From IMG/VR virus record IMGVR_UViG_2703718797_000011: a stretch of 4,449 nucleotides of DNA; one strand, written 5' to 3'. The first letter of the stretch is position 1; each line of letters starts with the position of its first letter. This DNA comes from a virus (Duplodnaviria; Heunggongvirae; Uroviricota; Caudoviricetes). Under the pieces are notes generated by a model. That model saw only the letters and a list, made by a program, of their open reading frames with translations. It searched no databases and was not told where the DNA came from. The position numbers were made by a program, and so were the translations under genes. Below are positions 1,419 to 4,449 of the stretch, one piece after another.

Positions 1419-2272
1419 TGGCATTATTACTGGAGCCACTGCAGTTCACCTTTATGAGTCACGCACTGCTGATTTCACTGGTAGTTTCCATACCCTGTGC
1501 GCTGCTGTCGGTCTTTCTGGTCCTGAAAGGTTGGGCACTGATGGGTGACGCGATGAGTCATGCGGTTTTTCCTGGCATCGTGCTTGCCTGGATTCTGGGG
1601 TTACCTTTGGCTACAGGGGCATTCGTCGCCGGAGTATTCTGCGCGGTGGCGACGGGATACCTGAAAGACAACAGCCGAATCAAGCAAGATACAGTGATGG
1701 GGATTGTTTTTTCTGGCATGTTTGCCGCAGGTCTGATTTTGTATATTGCAGTCAAACCAGACGTACATCTTGACCATATTCTTTTCGGCGACATGCTCGG
1801 GATAACCATCGGCGATATAATCCAGACGATGATTATTGCCGGGCTGGTTACACTTGTTATTAGCGTAAAATGGCGGGATTTTTTGCTGTTCAGCTTTGAT
1901 TATCAACAGGCGCAGGTAAGCGGTTTGCATACGAGATGGCTGCATTATGGGCTGCTGTGCATGGTCTCTCTGACCATTGTGGCGACGCTGAAAGCGGTAG
2001 GTATCATTCTCTCCATTTCTCTGCTCATTGCGCCTGGCGCCATTGCGGTACTCCTGACACAACGCTTTCATATTGCGCTCCTACTGGCGACTGGCATATC
2101 GGTAATAGTGTCAATGACTGGTGTCTGGTTGTCCTTTTTTATCGACAGCGCACCAGCTCCGACGATTGTCGTCTTATTCGCGGTTTTGTTCATCATGACG
2201 TTTGCCGTTACCAGCATCAACGCACGCAAAAAGGGAAACTCCCATACACAGGATCTGTTATCACCCAATTAG
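1415..2272 (+). CDS. sitD: Metal ABC transporter permease, ABC-3 family (SitD/YfeD-type), 285 aa
   Basis: 285-aa hydrophobic ORF, paralogous to the preceding permease, with the equivalent motif GDAMSHAVFPG. The ATG overlaps the sitC stop (ATGA) and a GGAGG SD sits about 8 nt upstream. It is the last gene of the + strand operon, with a TAG stop at 2270-2272. Confidence 0.85.
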   Translation: MMALLLEPLQFTFMSHALLISLVVSIPCALLSVFLVLKGWALMGDAMSHAVFPGIVLAWILGLPLATGAFVAGVFCAVATGYLKDNSRIKQDTVMGIVFSGMFAAGLILYIAVKPDVHLDHILFGDMLGITIGDIIQTMIIAGLVTLVISVKWRDFLLFSFDYQQAQVSGLHTRWLHYGLLCMVSLTIVATLKAVGIILSISLLIAPGAIAVLLTQRFHIALLLATGISVIVSMTGVWLSFFIDSAPAPTIVVLFAVLFIMTFAVTSINARKKGNSHTQDLLSPN

Positions 2273-2319
2273 CACAACATCCGAGGACAGCAACACCCGA
2301 TACTTTTTCCTGGCTTCCA

Positions 2320-2344
2320 GCAACGGGGTTTCTTCCTCCGTTGC
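2320..2344. other. Inverted repeat / stem-loop (7-bp stem GCAACGG...CCGTTGC, 11-nt loop) in the convergent intergenic region
   Basis: Read directly from the sequence between the sitD stop (2272) and the stop of the minus-strand 70-aa ORF (2364). There is no adjacent U-tract on either strand, so it is not a canonical intrinsic terminator; it may be a weak bidirectional terminator or an RNA-stabilising hairpin. Confidence 0.3.
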
Positions 2345-2363
2345 ATATACAGCTCACCTTTTT

Positions 2364-2576
2364 TCAACGCGGATCAAAACCGCCCCACCACGGCATATTC
2401 ATTCGCTTGCCATGCCCGAACATTTCAATCCAGCGATATTCTGCCTGGGTATGTTCACGCGCAATGAAGAACGTACAACCGGCTATCGCTCCGTAAGCCC
2501 AGTTTCCGGTAAAAAGACCAACCAGTATCTGCGCAGCCACAGCACAAAGTGCATGAAGTAAGGGGCTTATATCCAT
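2364..2576 (-). CDS. Hypothetical small membrane protein (70 aa): two predicted hydrophobic helices plus an aromatic/basic C-terminal tail; family not recognised
   Basis: The ATG is preceded by a canonical AGGAGG Shine-Dalgarno with a ~5-nt spacer. The N-terminal ~40 residues are hydrophobic (PLLHALCAVAAQILVGLF, WAYGAIAGCTFFI) and the C-terminus is Trp/Arg/Lys/His-rich (RWIEMFGHGKRMNMPWWGGFDPR). It starts 12 nt downstream of the 92-aa ORF stop on the same strand. GC is about 50 percent, unlike the AT-rich genes upstream of it. Confidence 0.6.
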   Translation of the reverse strand: MDISPLLHALCAVAAQILVGLFTGNWAYGAIAGCTFFIAREHTQAEYRWIEMFGHGKRMNMPWWGGFDPR

Positions 2577-2588
2577 TATTTCCTCCTT
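2577..2588 (-). promoter_or_regulatory. Shine-Dalgarno (AGGAGG) for the 70-aa ORF, located in the 12-nt spacer after the 92-aa ORF stop
   Basis: Plus strand shows CCTCCT at about 2582-2587, i.e. AGGAGG on the minus strand, about 5 nt upstream of the ATG at 2576-2574. It lies immediately after the TGA of the 92-aa ORF (2591-2589). Confidence 0.6.
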
Positions 2589-2867
2589 TCAGCTCCATTC
2601 CCGAAGCGGTGTTTCCAGCTCCACGACATAATCAGAGAATACAGAAACATCAAACAAGTCATCAAGAATGCGAATGTTGACAAAATAACCATCATTCCGG
2701 ATACAGACAGGTTCTCCCTCTTCTGTTACCCCTGTTTCTGTGTAGGTGAAACCAATTTCATCAACTAACAGTTTATTCTGGAGGTCTTCATCTTCCGCCC
2801 AGCCAAGAGATGACAGGAAGGCCTTAAACTGCAGTTTGTCATGAAACTTCAAAGTTAAATCTTTCAT
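2589..2867 (-). CDS. Hypothetical small, strongly acidic protein (92 aa); family not recognised
   Basis: ATG with an AAGAGG SD-like sequence about 5 nt upstream. The start overlaps the stop of the upstream 220-aa ORF (ATGA at 2864-2867). About 20 Asp/Glu against about 9 Lys/Arg/His, including a DEDEDL patch, with no hydrophobic segment. AT-rich (about 40 percent GC) yet open for 92 codons. Confidence 0.6.
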   Translation of the reverse strand: MKDLTLKFHDKLQFKAFLSSLGWAEDEDLQNKLLVDEIGFTYTETGVTEEGEPVCIRNDGYFVNIRILDDLFDVSVFSDYVVELETPLREWS

Positions 2868-3526
2868 ACGACCTCTTTTAATTGCCTGTCATTTAATTCT
2901 TTATGCCATATGCGGAAATTGCGAATATGGCCAAACAGATGTCGTTCTCCAGTATTCGTCTGCCCTCCAAATCGGATATTTTTATCAGCGGTCACGCCAT
3001 TATATTCACAATAAACTTCATTAACCGCTTTACCATTTGTCACCACATGAAAGTGACCATCAGCTTTTGCAATACATCCAAATGTGGTTTTCTCTGCAAA
3101 TACATCTGTCGCTGCGCTATTAACATACGAGCCTGAAGGGTTTGACAGACTCATATATAACTTACCACTACCTCTGTTGATTGCTGCAATTGCTGATTGC
3201 CCGGTATTGGCTGCTGCTATATCCCACACGCGGGGTGCGGCGTTTGGTGCAATATCCCAGTTTTTATGAATCTCAAGTAAAAAAGTAAATGGTAACTTAT
3301 AAAGATTATTTCTGGTGGGGATACTAACCAAATCACTGGCTCTTGTCGTTGCGCTGCCTCCTGAAATAATAAATGATGATACACACGGCCCATTCTCTAC
3401 TTGTGGGGTGGCAAGATAAATATAGTCACCAGATACTGTTGCCCCACCCTGCAATAATTTCAAGCGTTTGCGTATCAATGTACGCATCGCCAAGAAAAGT
3501 TGTTGCACTACCATCATACTTATCAA
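2864..3526 (-). CDS. Hypothetical protein (up to 220 aa) with a putative ConA-like/LamG-type jelly-roll C-terminal domain; start codon uncertain; alternatively a frameshifted distal extension of the tail fiber
   Basis: A 220-codon open frame in roughly 42 percent GC DNA is unlikely by chance. The C-terminal motif NIRFGGQTNTGERHLFGHIRNFRIWHKELNDRQLKEV resembles the terminal strands of LamG/Laminin_G_3-type lectin domains (compare F-x-G-x-I-D-E-V-R-I-Y-x-x-A-L-S-x-x-E-I). The track start at 3526 is a TTG; in-frame ATGs lie at codons 4, 5 and 14, all inside the tail fiber coding region and none with an SD. Downstream of the tail fiber stop there is no ATG until about codon 125. The stop overlaps the ATG of the 92-aa ORF. 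Confidence 0.5.
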   Translation of the reverse strand: MISMMVVQQLFLAMRTLIRKRLKLLQGGATVSGDYIYLATPQVENGPCVSSFIISGGSATTRASDLVSIPTRNNLYKLPFTFLLEIHKNWDIAPNAAPRVWDIAAANTGQSAIAAINRGSGKLYMSLSNPSGSYVNSAATDVFAEKTTFGCIAKADGHFHVVTNGKAVNEVYCEYNGVTADKNIRFGGQTNTGERHLFGHIRNFRIWHKELNDRQLKEVV

Positions 3527-4449
3527 ACCGTATACGTAACCTTACCTGTCGTTCTGTTTTAAAACGGCATGAGGTTGTCACGTACTTGTTATCGCCTGAG
3601 ACATCAACTGACTTTGTTGCAGCAATTGATGCCATATTAATAGCCGAAGTTTGCCCAACCAGAGAATCGTTGCAGACAAACTTTCCATAAGTAAAACCAA
3701 AACTATCCGTCCCGGTTTCGGGCACATCCATGTTTGATGACTTCCCCCAGCTGGCTGGACTTTCCGAATTGAGCATGTAGTTCGTTCTTTGTCCCTCAAT
3801 AAGCAGGCCATCACACTCAAATCGCGGCTCATTAATTTCCGCCGTTTTCAGTTCGCCAGATTTGTTGATATATGTTGCCGTTGATGCGCGACTGAAATTA
3901 ACCTGTTTATCACTGGCGACCTGAACCACATCGTCACCAATAGCTATTTTTTTATAGCCCGGAGAAAAACCCGCAATCATATCCAGTGAATCGTTAAACG
4001 GTATCCACACATCAGGCAGCGGCGGCACTATATTCGCACAGGGCTCTGCAGTCACTTCCGCTGCGGCTTCTGCGCGGTCTGCCGCCTTTTCAGCTCGTGT
4101 CGCTGCCGACAGAGCCTCATCCTTTTTCTGCCCGGCCTTTGTTGCGTCTGCTGCGGCCTCCCGCGCTTTTGTGGTGGCGACTCCGGCATTTTCAGCGGCT
4201 GACTCTGCATTACGGCGGGAAGCCTCTTCACTGTCTGCGGAGGCTTCTTCTGACGCACGGGCATTTGTCTCTGAACGTTCTGCCGCTGTTGCTGCGTTTT
4301 GTGCGGCTGTTTTTGAAGAAGCTGCCGCTTTCGCGCTGTTACCTGCATTCGTCTCTGATGTTTTCGCCGCGTTCCTGGACGATGCCGCTGCTGTTTCTGA
4401 TTTCTTTGCTGCCGCTGCGCTCTGAGAGGCGGCTTCAGCGTTGCGTGCC
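3426..4449 (-). CDS. Phage side tail fiber protein (lambda Stf-like), 5'-truncated by the window edge; C-terminal ~340 codons present
   Basis: The frame of track ORF 3426..4055 remains open upstream of its GTG to the window end. The upstream part translates to an Ala/Ser/Thr/Glu-rich repeat tract (e.g. AAKTSETNAGNSAKAAASSKTAAQNAATAAERSETNARASEEA) that resembles the repeat shaft of lambda Stf-type tail fibers. The distal ~209 aa (TAEPCANIVPPLPDVWIPFNDSL ... EIIAGWGNSIW) is non-repetitive and AT-rich. The track reports only 3426..4055 because the repeat tract lacks ATG/GTG/TTG codons. Confidence 0.8.
   Translation of the reverse strand, partial: ARNAEAASQSAAAAKKSETAAASSRNAAKTSETNAGNSAKAAASSKTAAQNAATAAERSETNARASEEASADSEEASRRNAESAAENAGVATTKAREAAADATKAGQKKDEALSAATRAEKAADRAEAAAEVTAEPCANIVPPLPDVWIPFNDSLDMIAGFSPGYKKIAIGDDVVQVASDKQVNFSRASTATYINKSGELKTAEINEPRFECDGLLIEGQRTNYMLNSESPASWGKSSNMDVPETGTDSFGFTYGKFVCNDSLVGQTSAINMASIAATKSVDVSGDNKYVTTSCRFKTERQVRLRIRFDKYDGSATTFLGDAYIDTQTLEIIAGWGNSIW
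4056..4449 (-). repeat. Ala-rich low-complexity tandem repeat tract, coding (tail fiber shaft repeats)
   Basis: GC-rich GCN-dominated codon periodicity. Degenerate repeating peptide units (KTSETNA, SETNARASEEA, AEKAADRAEAAAE). The other frames give spurious Gln/Arg/Lys-rich and Ala/Phe-rich ORFs (track ORFs 4052..4348 - and 4171..4425 +). Confidence 0.6.

Follow-up and report, generated by a model that had tools for sequence, protein, structure and literature searches.

A side tail fibre gene split in two, a remnant of tfa and a small candidate fibre partner at the right end of a phage 21/Perceval-type prophage

In phage lambda, the side tail fibre gene stf (orf-401/orf-314) lies after J and lom and is followed by the gene encoding the tail fibre assembly protein Tfa, and in phage 21 (CPT_21_22 to 24) and in Perceval, a prophage of E. 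coli LF82 (PERCE_22 to 24), a fibre gene is followed by genes for proteins of 92 and 97 amino acids (aa), a relic of tfa and a convergent sitDCBA operon. Here, we consider a stretch of 4,449 nucleotides (nt) from a virus of the Caudoviricetes (IMG/VR record IMGVR_UViG_2703718797_000011; "the window" hereafter means this whole stretch) that has the same gene order as phage 21 and Perceval, and that is the right end of a lambdoid prophage of this type adjoining sitABCD cargo; only the window has a frameshifting loss of 137 nt and an in-frame loss of 81 nt. A sequence-only reading of this DNA had taken an open reading frame (ORF) of 209 aa (3426-4055, minus strand) for the distal domain of a tail fibre with no adjacent tfa gene. 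The reading that we favour, with a probability of roughly 0.8, is that this ORF is part of a phage 21/Perceval-type fibre gene split by a deletion, that the cassette to which the fibre belongs replaced Tfa, and that the small protein encoded next to the fibre acts as its accessory.

Both the 209-aa ORF and the 220-aa ORF that follows it (2864-3526, minus strand) match the family phrog_1419 ("tail protein"), the first over profile positions 351-550 of 793 (E 3.9e-111) and the second over positions 597-793 (E 1.5e-73), that is, over the next part of the same profile. In LF82, phage 21 and Perceval the two correspond to a single ORF of 686-688 aa, which is also intact in mEp460 and ev017. The LF82 fibre has 688 aa (LF82 locus coordinates 9646-11712) and stands in the order J, lom, fibre, 92-aa gene, 97-aa gene and sitDCBA in convergent orientation; the arrangement is shared by phage 21, Perceval, mEp460 and ev017, whose fibres are 98-99.9% identical, and in the annotation of phage 21 the three genes appear as "side tail fiber", "hypothetical protein" and "putative membrane protein". 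Using megablast against 5,426 complete E. coli genomes, we found the region matched in 1,897 of them, the best matches being 100% identical but falling into three pieces that span 218 extra bases.

A base-level comparison with LF82 shows two differences. At window positions 3453-3454, a junction to which no strand applies, two bases (AA) stand for 139 nt of the LF82 locus (10235-10373) that phage 21 and others also have, a net loss of 137 nt that shifts the frame and removes fibre residues 447-493, inside a domain resembling a spike fibre. At position 2367 a single A stands for 82 nt (LF82 locus 9068-9149), an in-frame loss of 81 nt after which the 97-aa gene still has its stop codon and lacks precisely its final 27 codons, and with them the second transmembrane segment. 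The window is 100% identical to LF82 over 2368-3452 and 3455-4449. Because the first deletion shifts the frame, the distal end of the fibre itself shows up as a separate 220-aa ORF, the in-frame part of which (2864-3452, minus strand) corresponds to LF82 residues 494-688; the middle part of the fibre gene (3455-4449, minus strand) corresponds to residues 116-446.

The frame of the 209-aa ORF (minus strand, end at 3426) is open upstream as far as the window edge; the GTG at 4055, merely the first codon of start type in this frame, does not mark where a gene begins, and the ORF runs in the frame of the middle part from this internal GTG to an out-of-frame stop. By comparison with LF82, it is residues 247-446 of the 688-aa side tail fibre, and neither a gene nor a distal domain. 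It covers the end of the shaft and two thirds of the domain resembling a spike fibre, and the true distal end of the same fibre lies in the 220-aa ORF (the tail of the spike-fibre-like domain followed by a predicted concanavalin A (ConA)-like lectin domain). The sequence-only reading was therefore right about the fibre origin of 3426-4055 and wrong about its distal position and its status as a separate gene.

The architecture of this fibre can be described on the intact LF82 allele. Residues 3-133 match the prophage tail fibre N-terminal domain PF08400 (E 6e-68), and residues 3-96 match a 94-aa chain of PDB 9e7m named "Tail fiber protein" (E 6e-51); the window begins at fibre residue 116 and this N-terminal anchor lies outside it. 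In LF82, phage 21, Perceval and ev243 the gene comes behind J and lom and closes the tail operon, which is the position of a lambda-type Stf. Residues ~115-253 form an Ala-rich coiled coil (window ~4056-4449). Residues 299-545 are homologous to the head spike fibre Rcc01080 of the Rhodobacter capsulatus GTA, RcGTA (PDB 6tb9, E 6e-10), and the family NF048003 (GTA_spike_fiber) is matched over residues 331-531 with 56.8 bits for a cut-off of 36; in the window this domain extends from ~3899, lacks residues 447-493 and has its first two thirds in the middle part, and the score of the 220-aa fragment taken by itself is 29.6 bits, under the same cut-off. The spike Rcc01080 sits on the capsid, whereas here the homologous domain is carried by a side fibre of the tail, is followed by an additional lectin domain and, in the window, is interrupted by the deletion. 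The putative lectin domain is matched, just under the Pfam cut-off, by Laminin_G_3 (PF13385) over residues 562-683 (window ~2882-3247), and a Foldseek search with an AlphaFold2 (AF2) model of the C-terminal part (mean per-residue confidence score, pLDDT, 65) gave 195 PDB matches at E<1e-3, of which all the top ones listed are lectin-like, such as BoNT Hc-N, CBM40 and pentraxin (E ~1e-6). Neither the window fibre nor the LF82 fibre matches Peptidase_S74 (PF13884), a domain that the distal fibres of KarlJaspers, HannyBb and IrisVonRoten do have. Two further ORFs overlie the coiled-coil coding region, one of 98 aa and rich in Q, R and K (4052-4348, minus strand) and one of 84 aa, Ala-rich and antisense (4171-4425, plus strand); they have no family matches and are not genes, being alternative-frame shadows of this part of the fibre.

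This class of fibre is already described structurally, by prediction, in the BASEL II work. In the T5-like phage IrisVonRoten (Bas32), Gp22 is described as a proximal fibre with a protruding, galectin-like domain at its C-terminus, possibly an additional receptor-binding domain (RBD) (PMC11990801; the proximal fibre is named Gp22 in the legend of Fig 12 and Gp23 in the main text). Gp22 has the same lectin end as the fibre studied here (47% identical over the last 195 aa), and Gp23, encoded by a gene overlapping the end of Gp22, is a homologue of the 92-aa protein (50% identical). IrisVonRoten differs by a T5-type N-terminal anchor with LtfC and by a distal T-shaped fibre, Gp24, with a Peptidase_S74 chaperone, and it has neither the 97-aa gene nor a tfa relic. 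We propose that fibres of this class would trimerise through the N-terminal anchor and the coiled coil and would display, on each chain, globular beta-sandwich domains that bind glycans. Tips that are globular on each chain would have no need for a chaperone of the Tfa type, which serves intertwined trimeric tips, and autonomous folding of the distal domain, one of the options raised by the sequence-only reading, is plausible given the predicted coiled-coil shaft and per-chain beta-sandwich domains.

None of the ORFs downstream of the fibre had been recognised as Tfa-like, and profile hidden Markov model (HMM) searches bear this out. The family PF02413 (Caudo_TAP) gave no match for the 220-, 92-, 70- and 97-aa proteins even at E<=10 (positive control, lambda Tfa, E 2.8e-43), no NCBIfam Tfa family matched the 220-, 92- or 70-aa ORFs, and hhalign gave a probability of 0.2% for an alignment of the 92-aa family with lambda Tfa. 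A tfa gene located elsewhere, which had been named as evidence that would overturn the proposal, was not found either: tblastn with lambda Tfa against Perceval (first 50,000 of 50,143 bases) and the phage 21, LF82, KarlJaspers and IrisVonRoten loci recovered nothing beyond the relic, and the annotation of Perceval lists no Tfa.

The relic itself qualifies the claim that no tfa gene adjoins the fibre, which holds for an intact Tfa ORF of ~190 aa and overlooks 58 non-coding nt at 2288-2345 (minus strand) that are 93.1% identical to lambda 22437-22494, in the 3' part of tfa (E 5e-20). By tblastn, lambda Tfa matches window 2344-2285 (minus strand), where its residues 156-175 (ATKEETSLLEAWKKYRVLLN) are paired at 80% identity with the translated stretch ATEEETPLLEARKKYRVLLS; the match to PF02413 (E 0.007) does not reach the cut-off, and an in-frame stop just upstream makes this stretch a relic and not a gene. 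Homology between LF82 and lambda is confined to the first 444 nt (the 5' end of stf, to about codon 118; 86.7% identical over these 444 nt, with residues 3-160 75% identical) and to the 58-nt relic. Since only these two ends are shared, ~2.3 kb must have taken the place of distal stf and of the first ~154 codons of tfa; between fibre residue ~119 and tfa codon ~155 nothing of the lambda module is left, and unlike lambda this type has no gp37-like tip and no functional Tfa. The replacing cassette encodes fibre residues ~119-688 together with the 92-aa protein and the 97-aa membrane protein.

Elsewhere, larger remnants of tfa follow the same cassette: an E. ruysiae prophage has kept 164 nt at 90% identity, with an ORF of 64 aa, ev243 a fragment of 101 aa that matches PF02413, and strain 203740 a tfa pseudogene called by PGAP (missing N-terminus) just after the 97-aa gene, in the equivalent position. 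The homology of LF82 to the E. ruysiae relic ends where sit begins, which indicates that in the phage 21/Perceval lineage the relic was cut short when sit inserted. That Tfa is missing is ordinary mosaicism. The sitABCD operon lies convergent, directly after the tail fibre module, in the plaque-forming phages 21, Perceval, mEp460, 1H12 and 4A7, and its insertion point is inside the old tfa relic.

The sequence-only reading had also suggested that the chaperone function might be carried by the 220-aa or by the 92-aa ORF. The 220-aa ORF was discarded as a chaperone, as its match to phrog_1419 positions 597-793, its Laminin_G_3 match and its predicted ConA-like lectin fold identify it as the C-terminus of the fibre, but the candidacy of the 92-aa ORF (2589-2867, minus strand) is strengthened. 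Its product matches phrog_1361 over positions 1-91 of 92 (E 3.2e-42) and is acidic (isoelectric point 4.17), and the ATG of its gene overlaps the TGA of the fibre gene in the window (ATGA). The family is small, with 81 representatives at E<1e-3 among 1.84 billion proteins, and the protein has no match in Pfam, NCBIfam or PADLOC. An AF2 model (pLDDT 90.3) shows a small alpha/beta fold for which no PDB match was found at E<1e-3, the matches in BFVD being uncharacterised viral proteins only, and comparison of the profile with PDB sequences gave no match. In several proteins of 655-2744 aa, the part of the 92-aa profile at positions ~34-66 is matched repeatedly, 3-9 times, which could be a beta-hairpin repeat motif or compositional noise.

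Using tblastn, we recovered the 92-aa protein in 147 phage records, including lambdoids, Drexlerviridae, Dhillonvirus, Queuovirinae and T5-like phages, and the last 195 aa of the fibre in 205 phage records; most of the 60 matches listed of the 147 overlap the end of an annotated tail or tail-fibre gene. We then considered, with profile HMMs, 19 loci from lambdoid, T1-like and T5-like phages and one myovirus, and in 18 of them the small gene directly follows a fibre gene with a lectin end, with an overlap or a gap of at most 2-3 nt, the single exception being 4A7, which is interrupted by an insertion sequence (IS). CarlMeissner (an rV5-like myovirus) and Lindwurm (T5-like) have the fibre domain and gave no tblastn match for the small protein, and both proved to encode a distant member of the family exactly in the position after the fibre (E 2e-18 and 5e-16, respectively). 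After the small gene comes the 97-aa membrane-protein gene in phages of the phage 21 type and a distal fibre with Peptidase_S74 in others (225 aa in KarlJaspers, 343 aa in HannyBb, Gp24 in IrisVonRoten); in lambdoids with such a distal fibre, the 97-aa gene comes next. Among species-representative genomes only four loci were found, all from Escherichia or mis-binned. The element in 4A7, also present in 1W, 3W and Lambda_4C10, is a three-ORF transposase element with an IS66-like layout near the 3' end of the fibre gene, and in 4A7, where it occupies positions 6517-8933 of the locus, it puts 2.6 kb between the fibre and the 92-aa gene.

Taken on these sequence comparisons, the 92-aa protein is the only credible candidate for a fibre accessory in the window, either as an assembly factor or as a hinge or tip connector. 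No function for the small protein was found in the literature searched, on phage 21, on BASEL I and II, on LtfA/LtfB of DT57C and BF23, on the tail fibre atlas or on the engineering of lambda stf. A comparison of LF82 with 1H12 shows where it might act, as the two are diverged over fibre residues ~339-651 and share 94% identity from residue ~652 to the end of the 97-aa gene, the 92-aa gene included; the small gene thus lies in the conserved flank and not in the swapped segment, which argues against a chaperone matched to the RBD in the manner of Tfa or gp38. We would accordingly place the putative accessory, translationally coupled to the fibre gene, on the conserved parts of the fibre end. 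That phrog_1361 is an undescribed obligate accessory of lectin-tipped lateral fibres, acting on the conserved end of the fibre and not on the RBD, is a proposal to which we give even odds.

How such an accessory would work can be conceived in two ways. The 92-aa protein may be a functional analogue of Tfa, a non-structural chaperone for folding and trimerisation that would be absent from virions, and we regard this as possible, if tentative. Its gene occupies the position of tfa with the same translational coupling (an ATGA overlap), and it shares position and coupling to the fibre gene with the dedicated fibre chaperones and adhesins (Tfa of lambda, Mu and P2, gp38 and gp57A of T4), the protein is small and acidic, and it is kept beside the fibre even where there is no second fibre (phage 21, Perceval, 1H12). 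On the other hand, it has no detectable relation in sequence, profile or fold to Tfa, gp38, gp57A or any solved chaperone, and it does not co-vary with the variable receptor-binding segment, its identity being 90% where that of the lectin region is only 43%. Dedicated chaperones, moreover, are generally not required for the folding of ConA-like domains and coiled coils.

A structural role, rather unlikely in our estimation, would make the 92-aa protein a hinge or connector that ends the proximal fibre and to which a distal fibre docks; the phage 21 type would have lost the distal fibre gene and would keep this connector as a leftover or cap. Wherever a second fibre gene exists the small gene always lies between the two (IrisVonRoten Gp22-23-24, Lindwurm, HannyBb, KarlJaspers, strain 203740 and two more loci), the second fibre has its own intramolecular Peptidase_S74 chaperone, and the distal fibre is present or absent as a clean, gene-sized unit between the small gene and the 97-aa gene. 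However, the small gene is intact in phages with a single fibre, and in the published description the distal fibre attaches to the proximal fibre with no role assigned to a small connector (PMC11990801). Many lambdoid prophages have a distal fibre gene of 234-343 aa between the small gene and the 97-aa gene, as in E. coli 203740 (prophage next to bioA-ybhB), where it lies at 4342-5046 of the locus, and given the clean, gene-sized absence in the phage 21 type, phage 21 may derive from a loss of the distal fibre. In HannyBb, where the order is fibre, small gene, distal fibre with Peptidase_S74 and a gene resembling the 97-aa gene, a DNA invertase gene at 5387-5977 of the locus lies just downstream of this two-part module, a hint that parts of the fibre might be invertible, as they are in Mu and P1.

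Several observations weigh against the reading of a phage 21/Perceval-type fibre gene split by a deletion, with a lectin end and a small partner in place of Tfa. In the 5,426 complete E. coli genomes, queries of 81 nt across each junction were matched in two pieces only and never contiguously. Scans of IMG/VR, GTDB species representatives and JGI metagenomes did not recover junction 1, and junction 2 is absent from the IMG/VR viral contigs, the sole contig set scanned for it. Exact look-ups found the products of the 220-aa and 217-aa ORFs not to be on record. The Laminin_G_3 match, with 26.7 bits (E 6.9e-6), is just under the cut-off of 27.6, and the model of the last 195 residues of the fibre has a moderate mean pLDDT of 65 (core 75-88). 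In support of the reading, Perceval forms plaques and siphovirus particles (PMC9928086), and the fibre class is intact in this phage and in phage 21. Side fibres are dispensable for lambda-type plaque formation, as known from lambda PaPa, the stf of which is likewise frameshifted, by a different lesion. The viability of Perceval is thus no proof that its fibre assembles unaided.

With the junctions and their products missing from public sequences, the pseudogene state may be private to this copy or an artefact of assembly. Both deletions could be artefacts of sequencing, assembly or the construction of the window, the real locus having an intact fibre gene and an intact 97-aa gene, and we consider this unlikely, in spite of several points in its favour: the rest of the fibre cassette is 100% identical to LF82, both junctions are without microhomology and contain one or two filler A's, neither was found in the genomes and contig collections scanned, and many draft contigs break exactly behind codon 70 in the 97-aa gene, the very point at which the second deletion begins, the 70-aa product being on record only from genes cut by contig ends. 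Decay of this fibre gene is nevertheless common in E. coli, so that a private deletion is unremarkable. The fibre allele of strain PAR is frameshifted by a 1-nt deletion, with an internal stop in J in addition, one frameshifted fibre allele has 387 member sequences, and the fibre gene of phage 4A7 carries the IS insertion; as independent frameshifted alleles are widespread, the sit-linked prophage is often degraded. Loss of function of the fibre, the last option of the sequence-only reading, would then apply to this copy, which is a pseudogene if the deletion is real, and not to the fibre class.

It is very doubtful that the 92-aa and 97-aa genes are both morons unrelated to the fibre, serving for example in exclusion or conversion. 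Their site is the moron-rich right end of the tail operon, beside sit, and the 97-aa protein occurs mainly in temperate phages, also away from this fibre (Gally). Against this, the 92-aa gene adjoins the fibre stop also in strictly virulent T1-like, T5-like and rV5-like phages and neither protein has a PADLOC match, which leaves the reading plausible for the 97-aa protein only. Finally, the joining of the two fibre ORFs by programmed ribosomal frameshifting, which their overlap of ~100 nt in different frames might evoke, is rejected as next to impossible, since the overlap is made by a deletion relative to intact single-ORF alleles and the rejoined frames would still miss 47 residues of a beta-sandwich domain.

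The 97-aa protein, more likely a moron or a membrane accessory, has two transmembrane or hydrophobic segments (residues 3-24 and 74-94). The 70-aa ORF of the window (2364-2576, minus strand), which converges on sitD, matches phrog_1443 over profile positions 1-70 of 97 (E 1.8e-42) and is a truncated copy whose second hydrophobic segment is gone. Phages of other genera, Halomonas phage phiHAP-1 and Aeromonas phages, have distant homologues of the 97-aa protein, one of which lies beneath or beside a gene with the annotation tail fibre assembly protein. Perceval and Gally are reported to recombine at regions of partial homology between both prophages (PMC9928086). One primer for the first endpoint appears from its sequence to lie within the 92-aa gene, which would put this endpoint near window 2367. 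The remainder of the window is occupied by iron/manganese ABC transporter cargo on the plus strand, with sitB (truncated at its 5' end by the window edge, ending at 564), sitC (561-1418) and sitD (1415-2272), which are 99.8% identical to sitBCD of LF82, convergent with the fibre genes and arranged as in phage 21 and Perceval. A scan of window 2200-4449 for promoters and terminators gave nothing above chance.

This ordinary locus represents, in decayed form, a module that had been sequenced and annotated before in phage 21 and Perceval; the sole unexplored element is the family of the small partner protein. For annotation, the 209-aa and 220-aa ORFs should be merged as one disrupted side-tail-fibre pseudogene, and the intergenic tfa relic accounts for the missing chaperone by module replacement. 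The proposed phrog_1361 accessory may be common to lambdoid phages, T1-like and T5-like siphoviruses, Dhillonvirus, Queuovirinae and rV5-like myoviruses. E. coli prophages very commonly carry lateral fibres with a lectin tip, as the number of complete genomes matching the cassette indicates, and this type of fibre also occurs in virulent phages used for host-range work. If such a fibre were transplanted into lambda-based delivery particles, omitting its putative 92-aa partner might therefore yield non-functional chimeras.

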